From positions 46,624,001 through 46,688,000 of the forward strand of contig CM114271.1 of NCBI GenBank assembly GCA_050084515.1: a stretch of DNA of 64,000 bases, written 5' to 3'. Below are positions 1,661 through 48,400 of this stretch, piece by piece; positions within the stretch are counted from its first letter, which is position 1, and each line of letters starts with the position of its first letter. Below the pieces are notes generated by a model. The model did no database searches, was not told the DNA's origin, and saw nothing but the letters and a program-made list of their open reading frames with translations. The position numbers and the translations under genes were made by a program. Source of the DNA: Blasia pusilla. Its lineage: Eukaryota.

Positions 1661-2411
1661 GAGAGGTAGATGACTTGATCTTTGCATGATATGGATTACG
1701 GATGTGCGACTAACGATGGGGCAACCTAGCACCCGGCCTTCGATTCGGGCACCCAAGAAGGTGTATAGCATGTAGTAGATGTATAGGGCTACAGGAGTTA
1801 GAGGGACCTAACCGCTTGATTAGGGGGCGAGTTGTGGTTTTGTGTGTTTGTGGATACTCTCGTCTATGTTATGTATGTATGTGAGTATGGTATGTCAACG
1901 ATGTATGTTGTATGACGATGTGGATTCGCACGACATTTGTCATGACCATACGGATTATGTCGTAGAGTATGGTGTGCTAGTAGAGGCCATTCCTTATGTA
2001 GGACCGTAGTGGCTTGGTAGAAATGTGGTTCCATACATAGGGTTGGGGTTACTCGGTTGGGGGTGACTTTCCTAGTAGGGCCCGCTCTTAGGTTGGAGGA
2101 TATAAGGTGGAGTGCACTCAAAGAACGATCAGTTCTTTGAGTTGAGCCTGCTTGCGTTGGGAGTTAGCCTTGGTAGTGAGTAGAGCTCTTGGCTATGGTG
2201 TTTCCCAAGCTTCGACCTAGATTCTCCCATCGTGGGAGTGGGTTTGGCTCGATTGTATGTGATTGTACACGTGTTTTATGACAAAGAGGTCTTTCACGGA
2301 TTTCAGTTGTGGTACACTTGTGTTTGTGGATACTCTCGTCTATGTTATGTATGTATGTGAGTATGGTATGTCAGCGATGTATATTGTATGACGATGTGGA
2401 TTCGCACGACA
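1..2411 (+). mobile_element. 3' part of a Ty3/Gypsy-type retroelement (integrase + PHD finger) ending in split direct repeats B-A-B
   Basis: Frameshifted integrase (GHFGVKRT..C..C zinc finger; VEHFSKW, LTDQGTEF, GLAERVVQTVK core) and a C-terminal PHD. Then TAGGGGGCGA (1821-1830), B 1830-1935, TT, A 1938-2304 (starts TGTCA) and B 2305-2411 (ends CGACA). The 5' end lies outside the window. Confidence 0.9.
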
Positions 2412-2899
2412 GTTTTTGTTTATTCAAAATCACTTGCACGTCGAAAAATGTGGACATCTTTTCCACCAATGGGCTCCCAACATACATAATTGGGCACATA
2501 TGAAGAGAAGGATGAGGACATCCAAGGCATAACCATAGAGGTATTAAGAATATATTTCATGGCAAACAAAATGGAAGAATAAGAGCATTTGCAATATGTT
2601 AAGATCATGTTTATGTATCTGGACGTAAGTGTAGACGACGACAACAAGTATCAAAGGATGTCTCAAAGAGAAATGCTGGAAAAGTTTATTTGGTGCAAAT
2701 TCTTGGAGACAAGCTCTTGAAGTCAATCAAGCCATTCTATAATAATTTAAATGAAACAAGTCGAATTTCTTGTATAGCAAATGGAATAAAGTCCCGAACA
2801 AATCTCAGCTTTTATTGAATAATAGATCTCCCTCCTCAAAATGGACCACATGATCCATCAAGATAGATGCATCTCCTTGGAGAAACCTTGAAGTCATAA

Positions 2900-8000: not shown

Positions 8001-8819
8001 CATACTCGTCAGCCCATGACAAGTTCGACGGAGATCGCCCCATTACGCCTATTATCGAGCTATGACAAACCTGACGAGTCTGTAGACGGACAGCCCACGA
8101 CAAGCCCATCGAGATCGTTTTGGGATGTGTCTAATTCGGGATGGACATGAGTACCGGTAACATGCACTTCTGATAACCAAACTCGTGGAAAAAAGATTTC
8201 CTCATCAACTGATCCTCATGAGTGATCCACCTTCAGAACATACGAAAAACATTTGATTCAAACGTTCCTGAGACCGTTATGAAAGGTCGATCGTACCTCT
8301 TCAGGCTTTCCCCACAGTCTGCGCTGGTACAGATCTGACTCAGGAACGATGATACCTAGAGGAAGACCCTCAGTTCCACGAGGATGCCGAGTTGGGACAG
8401 AGGACAGTGGGTCATAACGGTGAATTTCTTCAGCGCTTAAAAAGCTACCACCGAAGTCACCCCAACCAAACTGCATCAGCTCCCCAGAAATCCAACAAGT
8501 AAATCAGAACTCGAAAAATTGGACCAGCAACCATTCGCAACAAGTCATGGATTGGATCACCTCTAGGGTGATAGACCAGTTTTCATTTTCCACAACTGAA
8601 ACTTCGGCAAAGAGTCAAGGGCGGGATTCCGTCCTGGAGGACAACCGGAAGCAATGGATTGAGCAGAAAAGTCCGGACAGAAGACTAATGGCGTACGCTT
8701 GTCAAGAAGATGCCGATGAAGAAGCCTATAGCAACTCCGCAGAAAATGGTGACGAGGAGCCTCAGGGTCTCGCTTCGCTTCTTCGTCGGCCCACTGCGAT
8801 GGAGACCAGAGTGAGCCAT
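5006..8819 (-). CDS. DUF707 family protein (lysine ketoglutarate reductase trans-splicing related 1-like), 12 exons, ~365 aa, N-terminal membrane anchor
   Basis: Exons 8819-8697, 8470-8297, 7714-7628, 7436-7321, 7031-6930, 6798-6685, 6496-6440, 6163-6097, 5812-5759, 5522-5448, 5269-5234 and 5098-5006 splice in frame (1098 nt). DUF707 motifs seen: GLPLGIIVPESDLYQRRLWG, LFHYDG, QTKWWYAKRFLHPDIV..YDFIFIWDEDL, EISQPAL, FVEIMAPVFSR.AWRCVWHMIQNDLVHGWGLD. Confidence 0.95.
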
Positions 8820-12895: not shown

Positions 12896-13330
12896 CTCAA
12901 GTTTAGAATAAGGGCTATCCCCTTGAACCATGAGAAAAGAAGGATGGGAATACAACTAAACTCTTGCACCTTGCATAATGATGGGGATGAAACCTCTAGT
13001 CATTACTTGGAGTTCACCCCACATTGAGCAAGAGCATATGCTCATATTGCTAAGCTTGTCACACCAAACTTGTTCAACACTTTCAGTAGCCTTGATTCAT
13101 TGCCCAAAGTTGATGTGCTAGTAAGTAATGTCTATTGGAGATCCCTATCAAGTAAAGTAGATAGTGTGGTGAAGAGTTTCTTCGTTGACACTTGGAAGCT
13201 CCGTAGCATCACATTGTTTGTTTAGCACTCATACTATATGAGAGTGTCTCCCTCCTCTCATATGGTACCTTCTCTACTTCTTCCTCTCTCTACACCCATC
13301 CCAATCTCAAGCACCGTCCAAGGTCGCAAG

Positions 13331-13540
<210 letters not shown>

Positions 13541-13877
13541 ACATACATTTATCATATGAATCCTAAAAATCTATACATGAACGATTTGACACACCCAAAT
13601 CCTTAGATATTAAATATGCTTTTAGCTCTAAAATCTACAATTCCATTGTTTTAACATAACATTCACTCCCAACATGACTTGGATATATTTAATATGCATG
13701 CACTTCATGCTTCCAAAAAAAATGTCCAAATCAAGATACACTCAAACATAAATTTGTGATCTCTACATTAATTGTAGCCTGCTATTAATGCAAAAGATTT
13801 CATGCTCAAGACACCAACTTAGCCTTGTTATAATATATATCATGGATCCCATTCTCAAGGTATGATATCTAAAGATG

Positions 13878-16800
13878 TGTCGTGTGCATACACATCGCTG
13901 TCACTCAACACACACACAAACACACACGATCCCATATTATTTCATGGCATCCAAACAACGAGACAAGAAGTACCAAAATATCTCCAATAAAATAAGATCC
14001 AATCTCTCTCAACACCATAGCTCTCAAATGTATGCACTCTCATATGTCTCTCTCAATGTGAAACCTAACCCCCTCTCCTAATGAGAGGCTTGGGTTACAC
14101 ACACAAGGCAAGCAAGACCATAGCTCTGCCGCCTCATGCCAAGAGAGAATGAGCTCTCAAGCTCATTCTCTCTTTGTCGAACCTCTTGGCATGAGGCATT
14201 CTCTCTTTGTCTCAAGCTCTTGACCTGATGTAGGAGGTCAAAGGCCACTAACAAAAAATAGAAAGTGGATCATATATTCAAAATGGTACTTACCTAAAAT
14301 AGTGAGTTCTTCAATATGGCTCCAAATGAGCCGAAATGAAGGCCTCAACAGATCATCCTCGACCTATTGAGCCTGTCCTCCACTACTCATGGAGGCGCTC
14401 TACTAGATCTCATCGATATATCCTAAAAGACGTGACAATTGTCGTGCGCGTACACATCACTACATAACATACATCGATGTTACCGAACACACACACAAAC
14501 ACACACGATCCCATACTAACTCATGGCATCCAAACAACGAGACAAGAAGTACCAAAATATCTCCAATCGCCCCCCTAGTTGGTGGACCTCAAATTGTCGT
14601 GGTTGGCGATGGGATACAGATTCAGTAGGCAAGCATCCTTAGTGTCTTTCTCATTGTACTTGCTTTTGTATGGCCAAGAGCCAGATTTACCTACGGCCAT
14701 TCGTCAAGATGTTGGTGAGGTGTTGAACCTTGATGATCCTGATGTATGGATGCAAGCATGTTCTCAGAGGGTTGAGTTATTTCGGAGAGTGATGCCCATC
14801 ACGTTTGAGAACTTGGCGATTGCGCAACATCGGGATACATTGAGGTATGCGACTATTTGGGGAGGTGGTTATCGACCACCTCCCCAATTTGAGGTCCCAA
14901 TCTCCTAGGTGACATCTCTGCAAGCCATACTTGCATAATCCTCTTCACCGTCTGCACAACCGGCTCAGCTAGTCCATTTGCCTTAGGATGATCTCGCGAA
15001 TTAGTGCGGTTGTCGATCAGTGTCTGATCACACAAGGCTTGAAATTGCCCACGGAACTCTATATCTTGGTCTGTCAACACCTCAACTGGTGCACCATAAT
15101 GACTCAGCACTCAATCTAGGAAGGCATACGCTACTCCCTCACTTGCTTTGTCAGGAAATGTAACCAACTCTATCCACTTTGAGAAGTGCTCGACCATCAT
15201 CAACACATAATGACAATGGCGCTCCGTCAAAGGCAAAGGTCCTGCAAAATCCAAATTCCGTCTATAACCTAAACCCATGATCGGAAGTGGATGCAACTGT
15301 GAAGTCGGAGCATCAAACGATGCTCGAACTTGATCACACACCATGCATTTGGCAACAAACTGCTGAACGTCAGTCTACATGCCTCGACACCAATACGAAA
15401 CCTGGAGCAAGCAGTACGTCCGCTTCACTCCAAAATGACCCAACTCTTCGTGGGCATCACGCACCAAATGTGCTTTCTACAAAGTATGAGGCACTACACG
15501 CACTCTACCACACTCGCAACACATGTGTCCCGTCCCACCAAAACTGTCTGGCTCGCTATAGGATCTGATCCTGCTCTCTAGCATCCATTATGCTCGCGAT
15601 GCTGCCAGTACGTAGGTCCTCCAAGACCACTCCATCATCGTGAATATCTCGGCCACCTGTCTTCTCCTCACGGGCCTCTGGATCTGAGGACTCTCCGTCA
15701 GACCTCGCCATAGAAGTCTCAGCAATTTGGCTCTCCATAGCCAACAAGCCCAAATAGGCTGACACATGCCATCTTGGCACCAACTCCTCATCACTCTCAC
15801 TATGCCAACGAGCTCTAGTTGCATCTCGCTGACTCAGGCATGGGTTACGGCTCAAACCATATGCATCTTGGTTGAGCATCACAGGTCTATGCACCACCTG
15901 GAAGTCATACTCTTGCAACAAAAGAGCCCACCTCGCAAGCTTTCCTGTAAGCTTGTCGGACTCCATCAACCACTTAAATGGCTGATGATCAGTAATGATG
16001 GTAAAGGGATTGCCAAATAGATAACATCTGAAATGTGCGAGAGCCCACACTGAAGCCAAGCACTCACCCTCATACGAGATATACTTTGCCTCTGTAGGGT
16101 TGTTTGAGCGATTAGCGTAAGCCACCACGAACTCTGTACCATCATTGTCAAGTTGGGTGAGCACGACTCCGAGCCCCAACATGCTCCAATCGATATGCAA
16201 ATGGAAAGGATGCCCCCTCATCGGTCTCCTCAATATGGGCGGATGTCAAACTGTCCTTGAGCATCTGAAATGCTCTCCTGCTCATCCCCCCAGTGCCACT
16301 CTTGATCCACCTTGGTGAGCAAGGTCGGTGGCTTTGCAATCGACCTAAAACCCTTGACGTATCGTCGATAGAAGTCCGCCAATCCCATGAATGCACAAAC
16401 TCGACTCACATTTATAGGGCATGGAATGCGTGAAATAGCCTCTACCTTCCTCTACTGCACATCAAGGCCCCCTGGGTATATCGTATGACCCAAGTACTCA
16501 ATCTGGTCGTAGAAGAACTTGCACTGGATGTAGCTTCAGCCCATGTAACTGCAATTGTCGGAACACCTCCTCTAGATGTTGCTCATGCTCCTCAACCATG
16601 GGGCTAAAGACTATGATGTCATCAATATAACACCTAGAAAAATCCAGACCTGTCAAGATCCTATCCATGATCCTCTAGAAATCATTCAGGGTGTTCTTTA
16701 ACCCAAATGGTAAGAACCACCATTGGTACAAGCAATCCTTCCCGTGAGGATCGATGCCTCAAAATGCCGTTTGTTGCCTGTCCTCCAATCTAATAGGCAG

Positions 16801-19800
16801 TTGATAGTATCCGGGTCAAAGATCTAATGAACTGAAGATCTTTGCATGCCCAATAACATCAAAGATCTCCTCATGAGTGGGCATGGCATACCTATCGGAT
16901 TTTGTCTACCGATTGATAGGTCAGTAATCTCCACACATCCGCCTATGTGTCTGCTTGCCATGCACGTCCTTCTTGGCGGGCATGATAGTGGCAGATGCAT
17001 ACTCCCCATGCGACATCTCCACTAGTCTTCCTCCAACCAAGTCCTGGCTCCTACTCTGAATCAAAGCCCTCTCCATGTCACTGTACCTGTAGGGTTTTCG
17101 GAAGATCAGCGTGTCACTCGACAACTTAATGCAGATCCTTGGACCCTTCAGCATATCCAAATCCTGCATACTAAATGCAAAACAGCTCCTATAACTCCTA
17201 AGGAACTGGTGTATGCGGCGCCGCTCTCCTCCTGTCAACTTAGGGCCCATATGTGGCTCCCAAATCTCCATCGTGCCTACAGTAGGACTCTCCGGTATGG
17301 GTGTCGGTGGTTGCTATGGTGTAACCCCGTCTCGGACAACAAAACTCGATTGCTCTCCTGCCACCAACTGCAAAATCGGATCTCCATTTGCAATACCCGG
17401 AACCACGCTCGATGTTGTGTGTACCATCTCCTGGTGTACCTGCAAAACATTCCAAGAAGTCCAAGGGTGTCTCTCCCGATCACCCCTAGTGTGTCGATCT
17501 CCTCTAGTCAACCATTGCCTCGACCGTCTTAGTAGGCATGGGGCTTACCAACGCAACTTTTGTGATCTGTCGCTCCTCAAACGACGTTGCTAAGCTACTA
17601 CTAAGCTGAAAATCTATGTCAAGCAGTTGAGGTACATTCCTTTATCCAAGACATGACGTTATGATGCCTCTGGTAGTGATAATACTACCTTCATTCCTAT
17701 GGGGAATCCCATCACTTGCTCTTGCTCATCGGCGTTAGGCTCCACCAACCTCTATGCCTGGTCATCCCAAACCAAGCCAGGTTCGGCCTCCTTGAATGCA
17801 TAGGAAGTGGGAAAACTCACCAATGTGGGAAAGGCTACTCGTGGCATGCCACTCTTGTGAACCATAATCCATAACCATAACGAGGGTCGATCATCATGCC
17901 TCACTGCCTATGATCGACGACCCGGATCCAATATACAATCCACCAACAAATCATAGGGACGCTCCACTCTCGCATAAGCCCTCCGCAACACCTCAGGTGG
18001 TACCAAGTTGGTCCACCAAAGACACGGGCGGTCTGCTCTAGAACCTACACTCGTCGCATCTAACAACATTGCCGGGCCGATCCATGCACGCACCTTATGT
18101 GCACTCGTCACTATGCGGGACCTTGAATCGCCCAAAATTGACACATTCTCCAAAATGCATATTGGAGAAAGAGGGTGATGCTCATGTAAATATCGCAAAA
18201 TCCGCATCATCTCCCAAAACAACCTGGACCGAGTGTCAGCTAACCCGCTACCTCGTCCAACATTCAATTGGCCCTGACATGGCCAACCAAGTCTATGGTC
18301 CCTACCTGCTCCAAGTCATGCGCCCCCAACAATGAAATGTCCCTCCGTAGGGAACTCTGGTAACCCTTAATGGCATACGCAAACAACAAGTTGGGAAAAC
18401 AGAGGCGTAACTGCGCCACATGGTGAAGTGAAGCGCGCCTCGCAATATCATCAATTTCCACATACAGGTACTGTTCCTCGTGCACTCCACCATGCAAAAC
18501 AACACCTAACCCAATACTGATCCCTCCAAAGAGATCCAACACCCAAATATCCTCCTCTAGGATGCACCACACAATCGGGTTGATGTCCAAAGGGGTCATA
18601 GCAGCACTCCTGCCTACCTGGGGTTCCTCTGACCCGTCACACTCTAGTGCAAACGTCTCGCTCCATGTGGTGTGCACATGCTCAGTGGCTAAGCGTCGAA
18701 GCTCCTCAGTCGAGCCCCAAAGTGGCACCTCTCTTCCACGGACTGGTGAGACTATCATGACACTCCTCTCCATATAAATGTCACGAACAAGAGTATCCTC
18801 TGCATGGATATGTCCCTCAATCAAATCAATAGGCCAAGTGATGGCACTTCTGATTGTTGCTAAGGTCGCCATCTCTTATGGTCGTCGCTCGATCACTACA
18901 CCTGTGAATCGAATGGGTAATGAGCTAAGGCGCCCATCACCTGACTGCCATCCTGGTTTGTAGGACGCTGATTCCTCCCAGTAATCCAGGGAAACCCCAT
19001 CGGGTATAACACTTCTCCACCAACCAAGACATTGTAGGACTCTACATCAATCACTATCGCCTTGGCTCATCTCTAGGATATCCCAGGAAAATCCTCACCA
19101 CAAACTCATGTCGGGTGATATACTGTGTGGTACTCACTCCACCCAAGGATGTCTGTATCTGGAATGGACAACGCTCCACATCGGCTCTCGTCAAGCCCAA
19201 TATTCTGAATGACGCTTTCCCCAACATCAGGGGTTGCGCTCTTGAATCCAACAAGACGCACTGTAGACTAAAAGCTCTACCTCCTAGACTCACCAACTAG
19301 AAGACATCTCCCCAATTATCCAGAAAAACAACACCAAGAGAAGCCATGGCACGCTCTACCATGGGTCTAGCGGGCATCTCCGCCATCCTAGCAGCCGCAG
19401 CCTGCCATGAATTTGACGAATACAGCCCAAGCATCAGCTCCAAGGGCAGGTCCATCACCTCCTCTACAATCACCTCTGAACGTGATGCAAGAACTCCAAC
19501 TCCACGCTCACATAGTGTAGCAGCTAGCTCAAAAAACTCGACAGGGGTACCTCCCAACGTCATAACATAGGAAGCAACAAATAAAGGAGCGCAGTACACA
19601 ACGGTGGCCGCCCACAACAACGTGCTCAACACATGCCCCTCCTGAGCATCAGCAATAGGAGTCATTGCACTCGCTTCTCCCATCGCCCTCCGTGCCTGCA
19701 CACCAACAACATCACCAACTCTCCAGGAACTCTTTATCAGGACCCATCCATGGGGTCCTTATTGCCTCGAACAACGTGAAAGATTGAGGAAGCCTGGTCT

Positions 19801-22800
19801 ATTTCCTGTCTTTTCCTCGATGTGGATCTAACTCTACGGCTGCTCCATGCGTCATAACTGCAGCGGCTTGCATCTGGGCAACCACACACATCCAACCAGG
19901 ATCCTCCATATCTTTAGCTGCTCCATATGATGTCGATGCCATGGATCCGGCATTGGGTAACCTCAATGCCATAGCAACAAACTGCTCCTGTAGCTGCTGT
20001 ATCTGAGCAGCCATCCCAGCCTCACGTCCGGCGTCTCCCTCGACGCGTCTAGGTGGTGGGACTCTAGCTCCTCCACGGGCAGCTCCACCACCCTGTCGAG
20101 CAACTCCAGCTCCTCGTCCCCCAATGGGACCACCGGGTGCATGATCTCTAGGCCCATCCGGACCGGCTACTCGCTCTAGTGCCCTCTCTGGCCCTCGGTC
20201 CGAACATAACTCAGCACGTAAACTGAAATACCTGGCGCGTGTATGACCATACCTTTGACAATAGTCACACTGATAACCTCCTGGTGCAGCACCATCTCCT
20301 CCTTCATGTTGAGGCATAGGTCCACGACCCTGACGAGTGCAATCACGTTGATGATGGGCTCCACCACATGACCAACAAGTAATTGTAGGGGGCTACTGCT
20401 GAGCCGCATATGAAGGTGCAAGTCTCTATGGCACGGCCTCTCGGTATCCTCCTTGAGCTCGTGGTGCCACAATCGACCTATCTCGGAGTCCACGTTGCTG
20501 CACTAGTGGTGCAAAGAATCGTGAGTGCTCTCGCCCAGAATCCATGGTGGCTATGCTCTCCTCCGCCATGTTGCGCTCAATATTCTTGGCGGTCCTAAAA
20601 ACATTTCTCAACGTAGGAGAGGTGTTCATAAGAAGCACCCTCTTCCGCACCCATATCCGTAGGGTCCGGTCCAACATTGTGTATCATGACTGGATAGCCT
20701 GAGCCTCTGTCACCCCCTGAGTGACGTTGATCAACCGATGCAAGCGAGTGTAAGCCTCACACAAACTCTCACTTGGGCACCTCTGGAAGTCGTAGATGCT
20801 CCACAACTTCTCCGTCCGTACCCCCTGGTAGCTCGCCCTCAACTCAGTGAAGAACTCAACCACGTGGTTGAACAAGGGATGAACCCGACTAGACGGTGCA
20901 ACTGCTCCAGTGCGAGTGACCCCTCCTAAAACATCACTAGTGGAAGAGGAAGTAGCCTCTCCTGACTCCTCCTCCTTATCTAGGAACGGCACCGTCCATG
21001 ACAGATAGTGTGGATCATAGTAGAGTCGCCATGCCTCAATCTCATCGACATATCTCTGGGAGAACTCATGATAATCGTCCGTGGGCGCCCCCTCTAAATG
21101 TTGGAACATGCGGTTCCAGGCTGTAAACGAGTTCAACTCTCTAGAGTTCCGGCCCGCTGTGAGTCACACAAAATCCTAAACTCCGCAATGAAGTCGTGTA
21201 GCTCTATAGTGCCTACAACACCCAAAAACCTACGCACTCCTCTACCGCGTTCGTCCATCTTGTATGTCCAACTGGTAGGACCACTCAATATGTACGGTGG
21301 ATCACTAACACACTCCTCTACATGCTCCCCCTCATTTGAAGATAACACAGAAGGAGATCGAGGTGGTCTTTCACGTGGAGACCCTCGAAACCACTCTGGG
21401 TAAACCCTCCAGAGCTACTCTCAGGTCCACTACCTTGCCTCTTAAAATCTTGAAAGGACGCCATGATGGCCCTTGTGCCCCTCTCACACGATCACTCTCA
21501 ATCTTGCAAGTAATCCCTCAGTCACTAAAACTAAAAATGCGGCACTCGATCTACACTCTCTCATTGAGACCTGTGCTGTGTGGCAACAAGCGACGCGGTC
21601 CGGCAAATCAACTGATATATCATCTCATCGACAAACCATCCTCAACTCGGGACATCCCATAAAATTCTATGTCCCCTAAACCCATACATCATTGATGCTC
21701 TCAGCATCAGCACAAAACAATTTCCCAAATAACTTCCCAATATCCGGAAATCCCTCACACATGGAGGGTAAGAGACCAGAATGGGTAACCTGACAATAAT
21801 GTCAATGTCGCTCCTCAGAAACTCCAAATCTCGAACCCAACTTGGTTGTGAAGACAACTCCTTCAATCAGCAAGTCGTACTCCTCTCGTACTAACGCTGC
21901 TCAAACCTCCTCGATGTGCGGTGCACGTTCACCGGTTCGATGCGGCACGGAACGGCTACAAATGACATGGCACTCGAGAATGGGATGCGGCACTCAACGG
22001 CATACCCTCTCTTCTCCTTAGTGAAGGAGTACCTCTACGATCGAGACGGTGCGGTGCGGCCACAAGCGGCGTGACGTGGCAATCGGAGAGCGTTGTGGCT
22101 ACGGGCGTCACGACATGGTACTTCATCGTCGTTGAGCGGCTACCAATCACAACATAGCAACATGAAATAAAAACTCAAACACCATAACTCGAGGTCACCT
22201 GCCATTGGTGGTTGATGACAAAATTGCAATCACAGTGGTGGCCAAACCAAAGTATGTGGTGGCGGCGCAAGTCAGAGAATCAGCGATCATCGTGGAATAC
22301 CCTCCACTCCGTAATGGCGGCAATGGAAACCAAGAGTGGACGACGGCCGAACGCGGCTCTTAGCAGTGCTATGAGGCGGCGGCGGCCAAAGGTGGACCAT
22401 TGATAATGACGGAGGATTGTTGATGGTGATGGTGATCGTCGACGATGACGGTGACTATGACGGCAACGGTCGTCGCCGGCGCGGCGGTTGGTTTAGAGTT
22501 TGAAAAATTTCACCCTTAAAATTGCTTAGCAATGGAAGTTTTGTAAGATTGACCATTACTTTTTGTTTGCAACTTCAAATTGCACACCGTTTGCTGCACA
22601 GCTTCACGATCTGCGATGGCGTGAAAAAACATTTTGAATCAAACATTGCTGTAAAAAGTGACAGGGACTGTTGTAAAACCCAACGTGTCTTTCTCCTACA
22701 CAAAATTCGATAGTGCTTCCATGCTGATTTCTCCCAATAAAAATGTAAAACCAATGAGAACATAAATCATCAAGCTACATGGTGCTCTCGAAAGCACTGG

Positions 22801-23552
22801 CATGGAGTTATCCGCCCCCATACTCAATTCCTATCAAAAATTGGGCAGCCGCTTCCGCGTGCCACTCTCCCATACAAAAAATCAGCAAAGCAAAACAACA
22901 AACTCACACGGCTCTTACTCCATTGAGCACTCTCATGAGCCATGAAGCGGGGAACACGGTCCTCCAACCTACACCAAACATCGAACAACCAGCAAGCTCC
23001 CTCATCAAGCTCTCTCACTCACTCATTCTCTCTTCGTAAAATAAGATCCAATCTCTCTCAACACCATAGCTCTCAAATGTGTGCACTCTCACACGTCTCT
23101 TTCAATGTCAAACCAAACCCACTCTCCTAATGAGAGGCTTGGGTTACACAAACAAGGCAAGCAAGACCATAGCTCCGCCGCCTCATGCCAAGAAGTTCGA
23201 CAAAGAGAGAATGAGCTCTCAAGCTCTCTCTCCTTGAGGTATACCCCTCCCCACTCCCAAGCTCTCTCCATGGTAACCTATGCTCCCAAGTCACCTCCTT
23301 GGCTCTTGACCTGATGTAGGAGGTCAAATGACACTTACCAAAAATATAACGTTGATCATATATTCAAAATGGTACTTACCTAAAATAGTAAGTTCTTCAA
23401 TATGGCTCCAAATGAGCCGAAATGAAGGGAAAACCTGCTCTCTCAGGTTTTCTGGGGCCTCAGTAGGTCATCCTCAATCTATTGAGCCTGTCCTTCACTA
23501 CTCATGAATGCACTCTACTAGATCTCACCGATTCATCCTAAAAGACGTGACA
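13878..23552 (-). mobile_element. Near-complete decayed Ty3/Gypsy-type retroelement (gag-PR-DNMT-RT-RH-INT) with split direct repeats and 4-bp TSD GATG
   Basis: GATG at 13874-13877 and 23553-23556 flanks TGTC...GACA termini. A1 23552-23037; coding region; CTAGGGGGGCGA 14578-14568; B1 14567-14440; AT; A2 14437-13988; B2 13988-13878. Motifs: gag knuckle CDYCQRYGHT, PR LLDSRAQ, RT RRMCGDY and YIDDIIVFS, RH LHIDWSMLGLG..YEGECLA..TDHQP..KLARWAL, INT VEHFSKW and LTDQ. Confidence 0.93.
17590..18548 (-). pseudogene. DNMT3-like C5 cytosine methyltransferase domain inside retroelement pol (copy 1)
   Basis: Motif I VLDLFGGISIG, II YVEID, III RDI, IV GWPCQG (across a small deletion near 18290), VI ILENV, VIII SRADRPCLWWTN, IX EPNADEQEQVMGFP. 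Stops and frameshifts present. Confidence 0.88.
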
Positions 23553-38300: not shown

Positions 38301-39835
38301 TCCAACGTGCTGATTTACAGATGGACCACTCCTACGTGTACTGCTTCGTTCGGCCCGAGCACAATTTCCACGTGTTCAAGATCCAGGATCCTGTGGATTC
38401 ATGCTTAGATGGGTATAGCTTAGATAGTTTGTACAATTCCCCCCCGGGAATTTACATGCAAGACAGTACCCCACTTCTGGGAGGAAGGAAAAGTCGCCGA
38501 CCCGATGCAACGCTCATCGAGCTCGCTCAAGGCCGGGTGACTTGGTGTTCGACTTAGTGGGACTTTCAGGGGCAAGTATCAAAGGCGCCTGGCAAAGTGG
38601 CAGGAACATTCTCTGCCTCGAGGGAAGGCAGGAACTGTTTGACCTTTGCAAGGAGGAAAAGGAAGAATACGAAAGGCTCGTTGGGGCGTACAACTCTCCA
38701 CCAAAGCCGAGAGCTCCGGTTCCAGAGCCACCCTTGGTAGTGACTCCATCGTCACTTCCAACGATTCCAAAAATTGGGAGGGCAAGGCCGAAAGTAATTT
38801 TGCAAGAACTCTCAGACGATGACGAGTGAGTTCAAAGAACTCAACGACCCAGCTTGACTGCAGCGTTTGGAGTAGGGAGTTTTTTGATGATGAGGCAAAA
38901 GATTTCATAGAATAGATCAAATGTACACTTCCGAGCTTTTTTCGGATGATATAAAGCAGAAGATTTTTTCGAACGATGGTGGTGCTTGTAAAAGTTTGCT
39001 GAACATTTTTTGTCTTTTCGAATGTGATTGTCTATGTACTCCGCGGACTTCTATTTTTCAACCCGTCGGATTTCTCCTGCTTGCAACTTTTCACTTTTTG
39101 ACCACTGCACCCTTTTTACCACTTCGAGGCAACCTGTCTGATTCCGACAAGTTGCCTGATTGGACTCTTTCCCTGTTGGTCTAACTTAAGAGGCAGTCTG
39201 GTGGGCTTCTTCCCTTGGCACCTTCCCCTCAACTCGTAAAGGCAGGCGTAGGCTTCTTTTCTTCTCTCAGACGTTTTGGATTCCTACTACCTGTGCGATT
39301 GCCATAATGGTATTACCGGGGACGGAGCAGACATTGATAATGGATGGGTGTCACATTGCAGAGCGTACAAGGTATACTGCCGAGGAAGGCGGTGGGACTC
39401 GAAACAGGTTACATGGGACCGTTATGGTGTACCTAGGGGGGGGGCCAAGGCTCTCAAATTCGCCAACATTTTCGATCCCCGTCTACAATCGGCCTGAGGA
39501 GCCACTTGTATCCCAGGACATTCCTTTGGTATTGTCATCGAGGAGAGTTAGGAGTAAATTTGTAGATGACGAGGCTGAAGAAATCATAGACTAGGTGAAA
39601 TGTACATTTCCGAGGTTCCTTCGGAGGTAATAAAGGACGAGATTTTTTCAACCCATAATGGTGTTTGTAAAAGTTTGCTGGAATATTTTTTGGACTTGTG
39701 GATTGTGTTCTTTTAGCTACTCAGAATTACAATTCTGCAACCCGTATGATTCCGACGGGTTGCAACTTTTTGCTTTTTGCCCACTGCAACTTTTCTACCA
39801 TTTCCAGGCAACCTGTCGGATTCCGACAGGTTGAC
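30150..39835. repeat. Dispersed 25-bp palindrome CAACCCGTCGG-N3-CCGACGGGTTG, >30 degenerate copies
   Basis: Clusters at 30150-30410 (transposase intron), 32780-33450 (intergenic/promoter), 35040-35710 and 37840-38245 (introns of the accessory gene), and 39058-39835 (downstream). Confidence 0.93.
33833..38829 (+). pseudogene. MULE accessory gene: charged N-terminus, ParB/Srx-like motif, beta-class N4C/N6A DNA methyltransferase-like C-terminus; 3 introns; frameshifted
   Basis: GT-AG introns 34457-34546, 35019-35724 and 37721-38320 keep frame. FFIRDGNHR at 34858-34884; VDLLISDLPSG (37430-37462, DPPY-like motif IV); YLSERGCFLV; LIEL-SRPGDLVFDLVGLSGASIKGAWQSGRNILCLE (38512-38622, motif X/I-like). 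Confidence 0.7.
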
Positions 39836-42800
39836 TGCTTGAGTGATCGGACTCTATCCTGGTGAGACCAACTTCTGACGCATTGTGGCGGGCTTCTTGA
39901 CTTTTGGGTCGTTCCCCTACATTCGTCAAACCAGTTGTAGGCTTCTTTTCTTGTCTAAGATGTGCAGGATTCCTACTACCTGTCGGATTGCCATTTTGGA
40001 TTCCCAACCTGTTAGATCGTCGTGGGTGCAGGGTGGAAGAAAATCACTTCTAAAAATCTTTCCTTTCTTATGGTGAGCTTTCTTACGGGTTGGGAGGGGT
40101 GCAGCTTCTCGGTTTCTCAGCCTTAGGATCTGATGTGTTCACATTTCACAAAGTTGGTCTTGAGCAGACACCATTCATAACCAACAGAAAGTTGGTTATG
40201 GGGCAATTTAGGGGAGGCCATGATGCAGGCAACAATCCCTGCAAAAAGAGAGGTTGGCATCCGGGTGGTCCTCCAACAAAAATACCAAGGGCACTGATTT
40301 TTGTTGACCGAGACAGGGAATGTTAAGAAACTTAGGCTCACATGGAGAGTGATGGAAAAATGTTTAGGGTGGTCTTATGATGTCTCCTTTTTCTCGCCCC
40401 CAGGAAAGAGGAGGTTTTTTTAGGGCCAAATGTGGACCACTAAATACTCTCTTCTAAAGATTTCCTGAATTTGAAAGCAAACAAAAATTTCAAATATGTC
40501 AAAAAGTTTTGAAGAGAGGAGGCGGATTTGGCCCTTTTTTTTGAAGAGAGACTCTCCTCTCATCCTCTCTTCCTCTCCTCTCTTACTCTCTCCTGCCAGA
40601 ATACCAGCCCCCGTGATGGTGACGAGTGTAGACTCTTTTCATGTGTGGCATGTGGTGGATATACGGCGGTTTCTACGTAGAGGTTGCATGTATGACCCGA
40701 GAGTGTCGCTAGGTTAGGTGAGTCAGTTGGAAGGCTCATGGTGAGGCCGAGTGTTGAGTGTGCGTGAGGCCGGGTATGTCATCACAGGATTGATGTTAGC
40801 ATAGGTGAGCTAGTGAGGAGTGTGGGAGACTCTCGGTGAGTCTGAGTGCTTGAGCGGATGAGATAGGGTTTTCATCACTGCGTTCTTCTAGGGTTTGGAA
40901 GAACGGGGTAGTGCGAGGAGTAGTAGTGGTGTGACACGGACTGGAGTGAGATACCGAGGGATTACAAGTGAGGAGCTACCTCGACATCCATCCGTGGCTT
41001 GATCGTCATCACTAGACATCGGGTCTGGTGACAAGATCGCAGACGGAGGCAATATCACTTGGCAGGAGATGGACGACAAGGGCCATCGGGGCATGCGTCG
41101 TTTCTCAGGTACAGTGGGCACCATCGCCTTAGATGATTTTATCCACGAGTCCGACACGTGGTGCGACTTCCAGGAGATACGGACCCTGACACGGTTAAAC
41201 CCTTTATGGCATGGAAGGGGTTGTTCCAGCACTTGGAGGGTCCTCCAATGGATGACTACATGGAGTTTTGATCACTATATTCAGTAGAGATCAATGCCCG
41301 GAGGATGTATTGGGCTCCACGGTATGTGTCCAGTAGTGGTCGCGAGGCATATGATGGGATCGTGAGAGGAGAGAGACCCACACCATCAGGCCGGAGACTA
41401 GATGGAGAGGAGGGCAGTGAGATAGGTGATGTGGCAGAGACCTTTGGTGGTAGAGGGCCATCCAGCTTCAGCCCCACAGTGGAGTTCTTCCGACAGTTGG
41501 GGAAGAGCTACCAAGGCATACACACCGACAAGATGAAGAGTCTTCAAGATTTTCAGCGACAATCGGGTGAGAGAGGCATTCATGCGCATGAGGAGGCTAA
41601 TCATTGTTACGTATGGAGTGACTGAGGCGCAGTCAGTCCAGTATTGGTACGGGATTCTAGACGGAGAGCTACGGAGGAGAGTCCGAGATGCGGTGCTGAT
41701 TCACACAGCAAAGCCCACATTGAAGGTGGTCTTTGAGTTGTCTGAGCGTATTGAGCTCAACATGAGTGAGGAGCACGTAGTGACCGCTAGATTTTCTCGA
41801 GAGTCAACGGGTCCACGAGCAACGGTGACCCCACAGTTGCCACAGCGAGCACCAGTACCACGGGATTGGGCCAGTGTGCCCAGAGAGCAGGTCGGGTATC
41901 GTGAGCCTATGAGGCAACGACCCGTACCTACATATGTTGCCCAACACTGACCGATGTGGTCTTGTTGGACGTGTGGAGGGGCCCATAGGCAGAGAGACTG
42001 CCCACAGCATGGGAGAGGACCATGAGCGCCTCCGATTTCTCAAGAGCCACAGAGGATGGCCCCACCACAGCACTAGTGTGACTATTGCCACAGATATGAT
42101 CACACTAGGGATAGGTGTTTTGACCTTCGCCGAGAGGCACGTTCAGAGGTAGGCCGAGGATCTTGGGGCGGTCGTCCTAGAGGAGGTCAGGGAGTTCTTC
42201 CAAGACGTGGTGGTAGAGGATCACAACCAGCCAAAGGAGATGGAGCAGGAGCACCAGAGCCGTCACTTCTCTCACGCATCGATCAGTTGGAGCAGAGGAT
42301 TGTTGCCATGACGATGATGCAACTTAGGGAAGGCACAAAGCTGCGAGCAGCTAGTGTGACTCTAGCTTCTACCTCTTATCCTGACCTGGGTCAGGATCTC
42401 GCTAGTATGGGGTTTATGTGTAGTGCAGCCCAGGTTGAGGCAGCTACAGTGGTGACTCGGGGTGCTGCGAGAGGCATCGAGTCATTGAGAGGTGGAGTTG
42501 AGATTGATCCACCAGAGGGGATTGATGGGTGGCAGGCCAGGGTTCCACAGTCATTCATATTGTCGGAGGCACTACACACACCATCGATTGTGCCTCGATG
42601 ACTAGTGGTGCCTATAGCTCAGGTAGGTACGTCGACATCACGAGAAGTTGGAGTGACAACTCCTATGCCGACTCGAGTGGAGTCAGTGTCGACCATAGTG
42701 TTGGAGGTGGCCACCAGAGTGAGTGAGACTCCACTATTTTCCGCCATAAAGTTGGCGACGTTGGGAGTTGGACCAGCTGAGGTGTTCCGGCTGGCCGCCA

Positions 42801-43784
42801 CATTGTGTGAGCGTGGAGAGATGTATGCTTCTTGTTTAGGGGTAGTTGACGAGGTGGTGGACTTGCCTTGAGAATCGATGCTCAGAACGTTCCCCACAAA
42901 GTCATGGCATGCGGCGGCGGCGAAGTTGGTAGATATGCCAGGTTGACCGGCCACAGAGCGAGCAGTGGTGACACTTGGAGTAGTGTTATTGGATAACCAA
43001 GCTGGATTATTTTGCTTGGTTAGTCCCACGGGGACGGTATACCACCCGCAACGCATCCTACTTGATTTGGGAGCACAACCCTTGATGTTAGGGAAGGCGT
43101 CATCTTTAGGGTTGGGGTTACGGAAGGCCGACATTGAGCCTTGTCCCTTCCAGATACTGATCTCGATTGGGGGCGTGTCACCCACGTAGTATATGACTCG
43201 ACAGGAGATAGTTGTCAGAGTCCAGCCAGAGCATGCGACGGATAATGTTGTGGTGCGTACATGTGCGATTACCACACCAACTGAGTCGTACGATGTGTTG
43301 GTGGGGAGTATAGTGTTATATCCCCTAGGATTCATCCTTGTGGGAGGAGACCGTTGCTTATCGGCCAGGGTGGCAGTCAAGTGACGAGCGGAGGAGTCAG
43401 TTACCTATGCAGTTTGCGGGACAAGGTGGTCGATCACGAGGCGAGTGTGTGACCACGTTGGCAGCTTTCACAGGTAGTGTTAGCTGGCCAAAAGAGTTGT
43501 TGGAGGGGAACGCACATGCGGAGGATGTCCTAGTAGCGGATAGTCCCACGGAGAGAAAGGCCATGGTGGGTGTCTCTTCCCATGTTGGCGAGACCTCTTC
43601 ACCATTGTGGGGTACGACTCCGGAGCTACAGAGGAGTGCCGACGATCTCGTGAGGCAGGCGTGGAGTCATGCCTTTATCCCATAATAGCGCGAGTTAGGT
43701 GGTGATCAGGCTTCTGGAGTGAAGACGTTGACCCCACGGGATACCACACCTGTTGTGTGGTAGTGTCCAGAGGAGGGTGTTAGG

Positions 43785-44730
43785 GTGTTAGATCTCTTCG
43801 GATGGATTAGCAGCGGATTGGCTGCAGTATTGCTGGAGGGAATACGGGTGCATCAGTACGTTTATGTGGAGAAAGATGACACCGCGCCGCAAGTATCATT
43901 ACGTCACATGGCGAGATTGGTCCAGAGGTATCATGAGTTTTTGCCGGTATCTGCAGTACGGGGATATCAGCATACACTACCCGCCGACATCTCATTCGTG
44001 GGGGCGCAGGATCAGGATAGAGTTGGCACCATTCATTTGGTGATTGCTGGATGGCCATGTCAGGGTCATTCATCAGCAAGCCGAGGATTTGGATTGCAGG
44101 ATCCGAGATCAAGGATGTTTTGGGAGATGTTGCAAGTAGTACGACACTTGCATGAGAGTCAGACATGTTCTCCAACGTACATTTTGGAGAACGTGCCGTT
44201 GTTGGGAGACACTCGTGCACGTGTGATGACGAGTGTGCATCAGGTGAGGTCCTGGTTGGGACCTGCTGTGTTGTTAGATGCAGCGAGAGTTGGATCACGT
44301 GCCCATCGTCCACGACTATGGTGAACAAACTTTATACCATCAGAGGTATTAAGTCGAGCATACGATGGAGTCCGTAGAGCGCTACATCTCATAATATATG
44401 CTATTTTGGGCTTAGGGAGTCGATCTCAGGTGGTGACATGGGGATGATAGACCACCGTTGGCGATGGCCAATAGGGTGGGGAGTTGAGGGCAGCCTTACC
44501 TACGTTGGTGAGCTTCCCAGCATCCCATGCCTTTTGTGAGGGAGGGCCAGACATGATTTGGGATGAGGTGACCTGAGCATTGGAGGAGCCTACAGCAGAT
44601 GAGCGCGAGCACGCCATGGGGTCCGCTACCTGTACTATGGCGGTGCCAAGGATGACTAAGGCATCCCGGAGACAGATGTTGGGGCAGGCGATGGACCTCA
44701 ACTATCTCACATGGATAGTCAGCCTAGGTA
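43785..44730 (+). pseudogene. DNMT3-like C5 cytosine methyltransferase domain inside retroelement pol (copy 2)
   Basis: VLDLFGWISSG (I), YVEKD (II), ADI (III), LVIAGWPCQGHS (IV, catalytic PC), ILENV (VI), SRAHRPRLW*TN (VIII), EPTADEREHAMG (IX), RRQMLGQAM (X), in canonical unpermuted order. Confidence 0.92.
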
Positions 44731-45478
44731 TGGCTGAGCAGAGACGGATGCGAGTGTCATCCATGCCGTCACGTCCAGGAGTTGGACCATTGCCTAGAGG
44801 GTCTGTACAGACATTGGTTGGGGGCGAGATGAGGAGAGATAGGCACCCATGGACTTCCAGGGACGTCATTCTAGCGGAGAGGGCGAAGGCGGCCATAATA
44901 TCACATGTTCATTTTTTGGATGTGGAGCATGGTGTAGGAGGTCAAAATGGAGTGGTTGTTGTGGAGGTGGCTAGGATTGCTACATAGCAACCAAAGCCGG
45001 AGGTTGCGTCCTCTCCGAGTGAGGTCACGATGGAGACTTGGGAGCTTGTGATAGGTCTCAAGTTGATAGGAGGAGAGCGATGGCAAGTTCATAGGTTTCT
45101 GAGAGGGCATGTCAATTGTTTTGCCTTCAGTATGAGAGACTTGGGTACGCTGAAGGGTCCCGGGATACGGATTGAGTTGGCTAGTGATACGTCGATCTTT
45201 CGTCGACCCTACAGGTATTCTGATATGGAGCGAGCCTTGATTCAGACCAAGAGTCAGGACTTGTTGGAGGCAGGACTTGTGGAGTTATCACATCGGGAGT
45301 ATGCATCTGCCACAGTCATGCCGGCGAAGAAGGATATGTATGGAAATTGGACGGATAGGCGGATGTGTGGAGATTACGGTCCTATCAACCAACATAGGAG
45401 GTCAGATCGGTACGCCATGCCTTCTCTTGAGGAGATCTTTGATACGGTAGGGCATGCAAAGATCTTCAGTACGGCTAC

Positions 45479-48400
45479 CTTGATAAGCAACGGTCTCCTC
45501 CCAGAAGTCAAGGATGAATCCTAGGGGATATAACATTGTACTCCCCACCAACACATCGTACGACTCGGCTGATGTCGTAATCGCATGTGTGCGCACCATA
45601 GTACTATCCGTCGCATGCTCTGGCTGGACTCAGAGAACAATCTCCTCTCGAGTCATATACTGAGTGGGTGATACGCCCCCAATCGAGGTCTGTATCTGGA
45701 AGGGACAAGGCTCAATGTCGACCTTCCGTAATCCCAACGCTAAACACGCCGCCTTCCCTAACATCAAGGGTTGCGCTCCCGAATCAAGTAGGACGCGCTG
45801 CGGGTGGTATACTATCCTCGTCGGACTAACCAAGCAAAATACTCCAACTCGGTTATCCAGTAACACTACTCCAGGTGTCACCACTGCTCGCTCTATGGCC
45901 GGTCGAGCTGGCATATCTACCAACTTTGCCGCCGCCGCATGCCATGACTCTGTGGGGAACGTCCCAAGCACCGGCTCTGAGGGCAAGTCCACTACCTCCT
46001 CAACTACCTCTGAACAAGAAGCAATCATCTCTCAACGCTCACACAACGTGGCGGCCAACCGGAACACCTCAGCTGGTCCAACTCCCAACGTCGCCAACTC
46101 TATGGCGAAAAATAGCGGAGTCTGACTCACTCTGGTGGCCACCTCCAACACTATAGTCAACACTGACTCCACTTGAGCCGGCATAGGAGTTTTCACTCCA
46201 ACTCCTCGTGATGTCGACGTATGTGCGTGAACTGTAGGCACCGCTGGTCGTCGAGGCACCATCGATGGTGTGTGTAGTGCCTCCAACAATGTGAATGATT
46301 GTGGAACCCTGGCCTGCCGCCCATCGGTCCCCTCTGGTGGGTCAATCTCAACTCCACCTCTCGATGGCTCGGTGTCTCTTGCAGCATCCCGAGTCACCAC
46401 TGCAGCTGCCTCAACATGGGTTGCACTACACATGAATCCCATACTGGCGAGATCCTCACCCGGGTCAGGGTAAGAGGTAGAAGCTGGAGGCACATTAGCT
46501 GCTCGCAGCTCCATGCCTTCCCTAAGCTGCATCATCGTCATGGCACCAATCCTCTGCTCCAACTTATCGATGCGTGAGAGAAGTGTCGACTCTGGTGCTC
46601 CTGCTCCATATCCTCTGGCTGGTTGTGGCCCTCTACCACCACGTCCAGGAAGAACTCCCTGACCTCCTCCACGACGACCGCCCCCAGGCCCTCAGCCTAC
46701 CTCAGGACGTGCCCCTGGAGGTGCCCGTCGGCGAAGGTCAAAACATCTATCCCTAGTGTGACCATATCTGTGGCAATGGTCACACTGGTGCTGTGGTGGG
46801 GCCATCATCTGTGGCTCTTGAGCAATCGGAGGCGCTGGTGGTCCTCTCCCATGCTGTGGGCAGTCTCTTTGCCTTTGGGCCCCTCCACACGTCCAACAAG
46901 ACCACATCGGTCAATGCTGGGCAACATATGTAGGTGCGGGTCGTTGCCTCATAGGCTCACGGTACCCGCCCTGCTCTCTAGGCACACTGGCCCGCTCCGT
47001 GGGTATGGTGTGCTTTCGGGCACCTTTGTGGGATCACCGTCGCTTGTGGACCCGTCGACTCTCGAGAAAATCCAGCGGTCACTACCTGCTCCTCACTCAT
47101 GTTGAGCTCAATACGCTCAGACAACTCAAAGACCACCTTAAATGTGGGCTTCGCTGTGTGAATCAGCACCGCATCTCGGACTCTCCTCCGTAGTTCTCGG
47201 TCCAGAACCCCGTACCAATACTGGACTGACTGCGCCTCAGTCACTCCAAAGGTAGCAATGATTAGCCTCCTCATGCGTGTGAATGCCTCTCTCAGACTCT
47301 CACCCGATTGTCGCTGAAAATCTCAGAGACTCTTGACTTGTCGTCGTGCAGACGCTGGTAGCTCTTCCCCAACTGTCGGAATAACTCCACTGTGGGGCTG
47401 AAGCTAGGTGGCCCTCTACCACCAGAGGTCTCTGCCACATCGCCTGTCTCACTGCCCTCCTCTCCATCTAGTCTTCGGGCTGGGTCTCTCTCCTCTCACA
47501 ATCCCATCATATGCCTCGCGACCACTAGTGGACACATACCCTGAAGCCCAATACATCCTCCAAGCATCGATCTCTACTGAATATAGTGATCGAAACTCCA
47601 TGTAGTCATCCATCGGAGGACCCTCCAAGTGCTAGAACAACCCCTTCCATGCCATGAAAGGGTTGAACCATGTCGGGGTCCATATCTCCTGGAAGTTGCA
47701 CCATGTGTCGAACTCCTGGATAAAATCATCTAAGTCGATAGTCCCCACTGCACCCGAGAAACGACGCATGCCCCGATGCCCCATGTCGTCCATCTCCTGC
47801 CAAGTACTACTGTCTCTATCTGTGATCTCATCGCCAGACCCAATGACCTGTGATGACGATCCAATCACGGATGGATGTCGAGGGAGCTCCTCACTGGTAA
47901 CCCCTCCATATCTCACTCCACTCCGTGTCACACCACTACTACTGCTCGCACTACCCCGTTCTTCCAAACCCTGGAAGAACGCCGTGATGACAAACCTTGT
48001 CTCACCCGCTCAAGCACTCAGACTCACCGAGAGTCTCCCACACGCCTCACTAGCTCACCTATGCTAACATCAATCCCGTGATGACATACCCGGCCTCACG
48101 CCCTCCAACCTGCTGCACCGTCAATATGCACTCCTCCACATGATATGATAATTTCCGCAACACAACACTCCCCTCGATCAACACGGGGCGCGAATGGGCT
48201 CAACGCCTTGCCCCCTCAATATGCACTCCTCCATATGCGTGCCTACACAACACTCCCCCTAACCCTAGAGCGCTTGCGCCGACTTGACCCGGCGACCCTC
48301 GCCGCAAGCTCTAGCTCTTCTTCTCCTGGTACTCTGACCTTCCACGAGCTATAAGACGCGTTACTCCCGCCAACACAACTGCGCTACACCTGTTGCTTTG

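Follow-up and report, generated by a model that had tools for sequence, protein, structure and literature searches.

A DNMT3-like methyltransferase domain between protease and reverse transcriptase in Ty3/Gypsy-type retrotransposons of Blasia pusilla

A stretch of 64,000 nucleotides from Blasia pusilla (GenBank assembly GCA_050084515.1, contig CM114271.1, positions 46,624,001 to 46,688,000 of the forward strand), referred to below as the window, was analysed for a methyltransferase-bearing retroelement. Three copies of the element and one inverted partial copy were located; all coordinates are those of the window. The features of copy 1 and of the inverted copy adjoining it are as follows.

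41087-42601, plus strand: copy 1 gag with a CCHC zinc knuckle (41963-42001), found by tblastn with the Marchantia proteins P0006 and P0001 and by translation
42602-43333, plus strand: copy 1 protease region, found by tblastn, with the active-site block LLDLGAQ at 43058-43078
43647-44846, plus strand: copy 1 DNMT3-like C5-methyltransferase domain, matched by the family profile; decayed, with 8 in-frame stops inside
43788-43817, plus strand: motif I (SAM-binding loop, LDLFGW), with W at the second glycine position
43863-43877, plus strand: motif II
44046-44072, plus strand: motif IV with the catalytic Pro-Cys (AGWPCQGHS); Cys kept in 98% of 155 sequences
44178-44198, plus strand: motif VI (YILENVP); Glu in 100% and Asn in 96% of 155 sequences
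44292-44321, plus strand: motif VIII (GSRAHRPRLW), covered by the alignment with DNMT3A from the PDB; the next codon, at 44322, is an in-frame stop
44598-44624, plus strand: motif IX (DEREHAMGS), in the second aligned stretch, which corresponds to the C-terminal motifs of DNMT3A
44667-44696, plus strand: motif X (RRQMLGQAMD), in the same second stretch of DNMT3A C-terminal motifs
44988-45482, plus strand: N-terminal part of the reverse transcriptase, 66% identical to residues 696-831 of Marchantia P0010
45482-48101, minus strand: inverted partial copy with gag and protease only, 89% identical to 40762-43362 (blastn/tblastn), head to head with copy 1

Motifs I, II, IV, VI, VIII, IX and X of copy 1 follow one another in canonical order from 43788 to 44696, and the span of 43785-44730 given by the first-pass annotation brackets this core correctly. 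That annotation had described C5-methyltransferase motifs, including the catalytic PC and ENV, between protease and reverse transcriptase; the motif coordinates and the flanking protease (PR) and reverse transcriptase (RT) agree with it. An ORF at 43764-44324 on the plus strand was matched by Pfam PF00145 (E value 8.2e-8; 32.5 bits against a cut-off of 22), and, in the comparison that had been proposed, both methyltransferase copies in the window scored above the Pfam cut-off (32.5 and 25.1 against 22). The domain is complete and in unpermuted order: the family methyltransferase profile matched copy 1 at positions 13-346 of 355 (334 of the 355) with 366 bits. With stops read as X, 43329-45524 is a single reading frame that contains both the methyltransferase and the RT. 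The odd residue of motif I is peculiar to copy 1: a different letter stands at 43803 in 732 of 751 genomic reads.

Gag and protease of copy 1 lie in a different frame from methyltransferase and RT, with the switch at about 43333-43341. The inverted copy has LLDSGAQ at the protease active-site position where copy 1 has LLDLGAQ, and relatives of copy 1 give Pfam aspartyl protease matches at the corresponding position. Copy 1 carries 21 in-frame stops, 12 in the gag-PR frame and 9 internal to the methyltransferase-RT frame, and at least one frameshift. The stop ending at 44324 is replaced by another letter in 625 of 638 genomic reads, and indels relative to most family reads were found at 44440 and 44477, flanking three stops. 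The element breaks off inside RT at about 45472-45482; 1656 genomic reads continue past 45472 into sequence absent from the window, and this continuation is, in frame, the next conserved RT block. Given the 21 stops, the frameshift and the break inside RT, copy 1 is dead and truncated and cannot make a working enzyme. It therefore cannot itself methylate its own cDNA or insertion site. Of the element pictured in the first-pass annotation, the methyltransferase within pol holds, but copy 1 is not intact (stops, indels, broken RT).

Compared with the family reads, copy 1 has A/T where the family has G/C at 77 of 155 differing places and the reverse at 25, an asymmetry that fits ordinary GC-to-AT decay. 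The contexts of transitions where copy 1 has A/T were 2 CG, 2 CHG and 12 CHH (16 listed, from a selected 40 of 199 places), numbers too few to read further. The CpG observed/expected ratio gave no signal, with 0.65-0.69 in the copies and 0.70 in the window.

Copy 2, which is near full-length, and copy 3, of which the 3' part is present, were mapped as follows.

13892-23552, minus strand: copy 2, near full-length, diverged and decayed, with 64-75% nucleotide identity to copy 1 by blastn
23037-23552, minus strand: copy 2 5' repeat A, with no B repeat adjoining
21243-19739, minus strand: copy 2 gag (tblastn)
19626-19069, minus strand: copy 2 protease (tblastn)
17569-19004, minus strand: copy 2 methyltransferase (PF00145, E value 1.4e-5, 25.1 bits against a cut-off of 22)
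17262-15514, minus strand: copy 2 RT-RNase H (tblastn; Pfam RVT_1 and RT_RNaseH)
15559-16245, minus strand: copy 2 RNase H domain (PF17917, E value 5.2e-33)
15311-14916, minus strand: copy 2 integrase (tblastn)
14594-14878, plus strand: C-terminal piece of the copy 2 integrase, in the opposite orientation to the other parts of this element (blastn/tblastn against copy 3)
13892-14567, minus strand: copy 2 3' end, in which B1 (14567-14471), A (14437-13988) and B2 (13988-13892) come after a purine run
2-2414, plus strand: copy 3, 3' part only, beginning with the end of RNase H (2-351); 80% tblastn identity to Marchantia P0010
412-957, plus strand: copy 3 integrase (rve, E value 4.3e-12)
932-1657, plus strand: copy 3 PHD finger in an open ORF (PF00628, E value 8e-11)
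1843-1938, 1939-2318 and 2319-2414, plus strand: copy 3 3' repeats B1, A and B2 after a purine run; B copies 97% alike

By tblastn, the order in copy 2 is gag-PR-DNMT-RT-RNaseH-INT, which matches copy 1 where copy 1 persists. Its segments contain 23 stops and at least three frame changes. The methyltransferase of copy 2 lies in two frames, covering profile positions 12-118 and 121-345, with the frameshift just ahead of GWPCQG. The two B repeats of copy 2 are 93% alike and the A repeats 88-94% alike in ungapped blocks; its 3' region has undergone some rearrangement and lacks the PHD part. An A-coding-B-A-B layout is thus seen whole in copy 2, and B-A-B stands at the 3' end of copy 3. A repeats flank copy 2 and a purine run lies ahead of the 3' repeats; no primer-binding site was recognised in copies 2 and 3.

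The integrase C-terminus and PHD finger of copy 3 were matched over nearly the whole length of the module by P0240, a DNMT-RT-RNaseH-INT-PHD protein (E value 5.8e-86), and by dozens of RT-RNaseH-DNMT-INT-PHD proteins (E values down to 3e-63). Since the copy 3 module matches proteins of both layouts nearly full-length, the PR-DNMT-RT and RT-RNaseH-DNMT-INT layouts have one integrase-PHD module in common. The Ty3/Gypsy Pol order PR-RT-RNaseH-INT with a DDE integrase was found in the order of copy 2, the rve match of copy 3 and the full order of P0080. The likely full layout is an A repeat, gag (CCHC), PR, DNMT3, RT, RNase H, integrase, PHD finger and B-A-B repeats.

The kind of methyltransferase was determined with the homolog P0005 as query for a sequence search of the PDB and for an AF2 model. 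Against all PDB sequences, P0005 gave E values of 6e-12 for DNMT3A, 1.4e-9 for DNMT3B and 6e-9 for DNMT3C, followed by tobacco DRM (1.2e-8), AtDRM2 (1.6e-4), bacterial enzymes (about 1e-3) and DNMT2 (0.007); DNMT1 gave no PDB match at an E value of 0.01 or better with this query. The alignment with DNMT3A is collinear, query residues 47-231 pairing with 7-171 and 320-353 with 235-268. DRM chains match P0005 through their own C-terminal part only, as would be expected from the permuted motif order of DRM; the copy 1 domain, read from its motifs, is not permuted. The AF2 model of P0005 had a pLDDT of 86.1 and a pTM of 0.87, and the Foldseek matches listed for it (best 50) were DNMT3A, 3B and 3C only, with a best E value of 2.1e-19 and a target-normalised TM score of 0.82. 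The domain is accordingly classed as DNMT3-like by PDB sequence ranking and predicted fold rather than by a rooted tree. The term DNMT3-like used in the first-pass annotation is borne out, the PDB ranking and the predicted fold both being nearest to DNMT3A/3B/3C.

Homologs were collected in several searches. A word-indexed protein search returned 41 proteins, the best 72% identical; all 21 that carry names are from bryophytes (16 Marchantia polymorpha, 3 Calypogeia fissa and 2 Sphagnum). Marchantia paleacea, Riccia sorocarpa and Sphagnum tenellum were added by a further homolog search. Marchantia P0010 and P0023 each hold PF00145, then RVT_1, then RNase H in a single ORF, and the tblastn alignment of Marchantia P0006 to both window copies runs from gag through PR to the methyltransferase. 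Relatives from Calypogeia, Sphagnum and Closterium show parts of the gag-PR-DNMT-RT-RNaseH-INT order, those from Closterium as PR-DNMT or DNMT-RT. By sequence, the family occurs in liverworts and Sphagnum mosses, and the same domain order is seen in proteins of the alga Closterium. None of the reference DNMT families was found among the proteins listed in the homolog searches (41, 69 and the best 120 of 303).

When 1.84 billion representatives were searched exhaustively with HMMER, 1249 matched at an E value of at most 0.001, 350 of them at 1e-10 or below. Among the best 150 of the 1249, retroelement domains were present in 47 of the 78 representatives of at least 400 amino acids and PWWP or ADD domains in 0 of these 78; no DNMT1, 2, 4, 5, 6, CMT, DRM or host DNMT3 reference occurred among the best 150. 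The representatives listed fall into three layouts: PR-DNMT-RT, with Closterium as the named source; RT-RNaseH-DNMT-INT-PHD, with the chlorophytes Scenedesmus, Chromochloris and Haematococcus; and Copia elements carrying the methyltransferase domain, from Closterium. A metagenome scan for DNA of close relatives gave 80 loci of low identity (21-45%), which, from that identity and from some record names, look mostly like distant methyltransferases outside elements. Only L001 and L002 of the 80 were element-like; L001 has the order RT-RNaseH-DNMT-INT-PHD, and its 11 kb contain no direct repeats.

A tree of 117 methyltransferase domains was computed with a quick IQ-TREE run, using SH-aLRT support only and a midpoint root. 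From 343 database proteins with a profile match, 188 covering less than 80% of the profile and 40 more than 80% identical to others were dropped. Both window copies fall in an 11-row clade with Marchantia and Calypogeia sequences (SH-aLRT 99). The Closterium PR-DNMT-RT group forms a separate clade (SH-aLRT 97), and all RT-RNaseH-DNMT-INT rows except one lie in a single 78-row clade (SH-aLRT 97).

Abundance was assessed with a single genomic Hi-C run and transcription with three RNA runs, all from the same species, counting reads with at least 90% likeness to 43300-45520. In the Hi-C run, 37,044 of 12.9 million sampled reads (about 0.3%) matched, with a summed depth of up to about 2700 across the region; 1021 reads were at least 99% alike and 27,638 were 90-95% alike. 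These counts, a share of reads and not a calibrated copy number, indicate a large and diverse element family in the source genome. The three RNA runs gave 107, 105 and 116 reads, of which 78, 77 and 85 were 90-95% alike, and both methyltransferase and RT were covered. Nearly all RNA reads had the first mate on the minus strand, which in the usual stranded-library convention denotes the sense transcript of a plus-strand element; given that convention, the reads are apparently sense transcripts. As most are only 90-95% alike, they come from copies other than copy 1; they are few and could be read-through transcripts. The family looks active.

Conservation was scored in 155 sequences with a profile coverage of 80% or more. 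The catalytic Cys was kept in 98%, the two Arg of motif VIII in 97% and 98%, Glu and Asn of ENV in 100% and 96%, and a Gly of motif I in 96%. Between copies 1 and 2, dN/dS (Nei-Gojobori) was 0.26 for the N part of the methyltransferase, 0.26 for gag, 0.20 for PR and 0.21 for RT; the C part of the methyltransferase was saturated, with a pN/pS of 0.375. These values are rough, given saturation at synonymous sites (pS 0.67-0.75) and the decay of both copies once they were dead. The methyltransferase thus appears to have diverged under constraint similar to that on the rest of pol, which is as far as such rough values go.

Taken together, the methyltransferase is very probably an inherited, selection-maintained part of a Ty3/Gypsy-type LTR retrotransposon family, and not a local insertion. 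The rearranged state of copy 1, with its many stops and the adjoining inverted partial copy, might suggest that a single element captured part of a host DNMT3 gene or had one inserted into it, or that the assembly is chimeric here. Such a one-off event is extremely improbable and is refuted by co-linearity in independent copies: the diverged copy 2 has the same order, Marchantia proteins carry PF00145 upstream of RVT_1 in a single ORF, Closterium proteins read PR-DNMT or DNMT-RT, and genomic depth is in the hundreds to thousands across the bins of the PR-DNMT and DNMT-RT junctions. The first-pass annotation had named a lack of co-linearity in other copies as grounds for abandoning its reading; co-linearity was found in copy 2, Marchantia P0010 and P0023, Closterium and about 37,000 genomic reads. 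In intact relatives, where the catalytic residues are kept, the enzyme would be translated as part of Gag-Pol. Three roles were ranked. Methylation of the element's own newly made cDNA by active copies comes first and is quite possible, if somewhat short of an even chance; it would probably fall at CG, as with DNMT3 enzymes, and new insertions would then arrive bearing the mark of the host. Next, as a rather unlikely alternative, the enzyme would methylate chromatin in or near the site of insertion, and the PHD finger might guide integration. DNMT2 acts on tRNA and DNMT3L is a non-catalytic module, and a domain under selection without DNA methylation could act on an RNA target (genomic RNA or primer tRNA) or, like DNMT3L, as a non-catalytic module for nucleic-acid binding or oligomerisation. 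This last role is improbable: a dead module of the DNMT3L kind is at odds with the catalytic Cys, ENV and Arg pair being kept in 96-100% of 155 sequences, and both sequence and predicted fold are nearest to the DNA enzymes DNMT3A/3B, with DNMT2 at an E value of only 0.007. In the accessible text of de Mendoza et al. (2018; PMC5890265), a Pol-embedded DNMT3 is proposed to methylate the new cDNA of its element, and SymbioDIRS-Dnmt3 domains expressed in yeast methylated CG sites de novo. With the Klebsormidium Gypsy enzyme, no methylation of yeast DNA was seen, in an assay that the authors call inconclusive, and RNA methylation is raised in that paper for a LINE-borne enzyme (PMC5890265); both points favour a role other than DNA methylation.

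How the elements are related to those of Klebsormidium is a separate matter. The first-pass annotation had cited the retrotransposon-borne DNMTs of de Mendoza et al. (2018) as precedent, correctly when compared with the accessible text (PMC5890265), and had supposed that this lineage persists here. It can be proposed tentatively that a single old Gypsy lineage (gag-PR-DNMT3-RT-RNaseH-INT-PHD, with split direct repeats) passed from streptophyte algae to land plants, is still active in bryophytes and makes up about 1% of some bryophyte genomes, and that the methyltransferase moved within the lineage, with the chlorophyte RT-RNaseH-DNMT-INT-PHD elements as a sister form. Should the bryophyte and Closterium elements instead have gained DNMT3 independently of KnitGypsy-Dnmt3, the lineage would not persist; this reading is doubtful, yet it has points in its favour. 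Capture of DNMT3 by retrotransposons is recurrent (DIRS twice, and Gypsy) in the accessible text of PMC5890265, the position of the domain differs among three arrangements (PR-DNMT-RT, RT-RNaseH-DNMT-INT and Copia), and no K. nitens name occurs among the relatives listed (41, 69 and the best 120 of 303) or in 30 clusters, an absence that is weak evidence as the two profile searches each scored only the 8000 candidates sharing most words. Independent gain is countered by the A-coding-B-A-B layout that the window copies have in common with KnitGypsy-Dnmt3 as described in the figure legends (PMC5890265), and by the PR-DNMT-RT order also being found in Closterium, a streptophyte alga.

In the literature searched, with subscription journals and supplements outside the scope, no description of Gypsy-DNMT3 elements from land plants was found; a single charophyte alga is the only reported source of the Gypsy form. 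The text of the 2018 paper, as far as accessible (PMC5890265), has 0 occurrences of Marchantia, liverwort, moss or Physcomitrella; in the accessible parts of a 2025 paper, which cites the 2018 work, and of a 2026 preprint (bioRxiv 10.64898/2026.05.21.726589), 'streptophytes' is the only term used. This kind of element proves to be abundant and transcribed in a bryophyte genome. Proteins of such elements are already annotated, unnamed, in Marchantia polymorpha, and presence in this tractable land-plant model with good methylome tools would make their function testable. Cytosine methylation is the main route by which hosts silence transposons, so a transposon with a de novo methyltransferase of its own reverses the usual picture. 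The PHD finger and the DIRS-like repeats provide two handles, on chromatin targeting and on replication of the element. If the single old lineage is true, a writer of chromatin marks and a reader of them are combined in one element, and de novo methyltransferases encoded by transposons would have a share in the methylomes of land plants, that of the model liverwort Marchantia included.

Among known systems, the animal enzymes DNMT3A/3B/3C are the best sequence and fold matches, and motifs I to X are collinear with those of DNMT3A. In contrast to host DNMT3 and DRM, the window domain lacks PWWP and ADD and is embedded in a retroelement polyprotein; unlike DRM, it is not circularly permuted. Chromoviruses are Gypsy elements with a chromodomain after the integrase, and in copy 3, too, the C-terminus of the integrase is joined to a module that reads chromatin; the reader in copy 3, however, is a PHD finger (PF00628), and a methyltransferase is present in the element as well. 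EpiLTRs resemble the window elements in being LTR retrotransposons with a DNA methyltransferase and a chromatin reader. They differ in having a Dam-type adenine methyltransferase and a DNMT near DNMT4, located at the 3' end of pol, together with a chromodomain; they occur in Cymbomonas and Euglena, and the accessible text of the preprint separates them from 'streptophytes (Gypsy-DNMT3)' (bioRxiv 10.64898/2026.05.21.726589).

SymbioDIRS-Dnmt3 of Symbiodinium has, like the window elements, a DNMT3-type domain in Pol and the A-coding-B-A-B layout, according to the accessible text of PMC5890265. It is, however, a DIRS element with a tyrosine recombinase, whereas the window elements combine the Gypsy order PR-RT-RNaseH-INT with an integrase of the DDE type (rve); the Symbiodinium protein P0246 matched the family profile with an E value of only 8.3e-9. 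Closer is KnitGypsy-Dnmt3 of Klebsormidium nitens, for which the accessible text of PMC5890265 gives, as in the window elements, a Gypsy domain set with a non-rearranged DNMT3-like domain inside Pol and, as in the window family, conserved catalytic residues and signs of purifying selection. Its repeats, like those of copy 2, are A-coding-B-A-B, called 'the same' as in SymbioDIRS-Dnmt3 (legends of Fig. 1e and Fig. 4c; PMC5890265). The differences are that the nearest relatives of the window elements are liverwort and moss elements, that the family is far more abundant here, with about 0.3% of sampled reads against 'fewer copies' in K. nitens, and that copy 3 has a PHD finger after the integrase, 'PHD' having 0 occurrences in the text of PMC5890265 as far as accessible. 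The kind of architecture and the A-coding-B-A-B repeat layout are the only links to the Klebsormidium elements; by this analogy the window elements may work like KnitGypsy-Dnmt3 and may belong to its lineage.

Copy 1 of the methyltransferase-bearing Ty3/Gypsy-type family lies within a palindrome-like rearrangement of two element copies, in which an inverted duplication of the gag-protease region surrounds the methyltransferase-RT piece. The 2.6-kb arms (40762-43362 and 45482-48101) match at 89% and enclose this piece between them. Tandem units, located upstream of the copy 1 gag, may represent a duplicated 5′ repeat region; no similarity to the A or B repeats of copy 2, the minus-strand element of the family, was detected by blastn. 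These units and further features of the window are as follows.

2-2414, plus strand: copy 3, a partial element running from the RNase H end through integrase and a PHD-finger ORF to B-A-B repeats
6929-7219, minus strand: short ORF matching DUF707 (PF05212; E = 6.7e-18)
8400-10000: GC-rich block (55%) in which each strand carries long open reading frames that overlap
13310-13560: long (CA)n microsatellite immediately beyond the 3′ end of copy 2
38871-39999: two tandem units of ~680 nt each, 76-81% alike

The DUF707 ORF is probably a host-gene exon or remnant, and the GC-rich block gave no Pfam match. Copy 3 was seen from the RNase H end onward, its 5′ portion lying beyond the window edge, and its PHD finger is encoded in an open 242-aa ORF 3′ of the integrase.

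The integrase-PHD module is common to the window family and to elements with a second layout, RT-RNaseH-DNMT-INT-PHD, which was frequent among relatives (P0062, P0113, P0231 and others). Chlorophyte hosts of this layout were Scenedesmus, Chromochloris and Haematococcus. A metagenome locus of the same type, L001, carries an intact ORF.

1400-7483 of L001: intact ORF of 2027 aa, RT-RNaseH-DNMT-INT-PHD type

A third retroelement setting of the same methyltransferase clade is provided by two Copia-type Closterium proteins (P0098 and P0172), in which copia gag, RVT_2 and a retroviral SH3-like domain accompany the DNMT3-like domain. Protein P0254 (455 aa, 49% identity to the homolog P0005) is labeled as originating from a Candidatus Obscuribacterales metagenome-assembled genome; its source was probably a eukaryotic transposon contig mis-sorted (binned) into a bacterial genome. 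Finally, metagenomic P0160 combines a C5 methyltransferase and a Dam-type adenine methyltransferase (PF05869) in a single protein, reminiscent of the EpiLTR retrotransposons, in which, according to a 2026 preprint (bioRxiv 10.64898/2026.05.21.726589), both methyltransferase types occur together.
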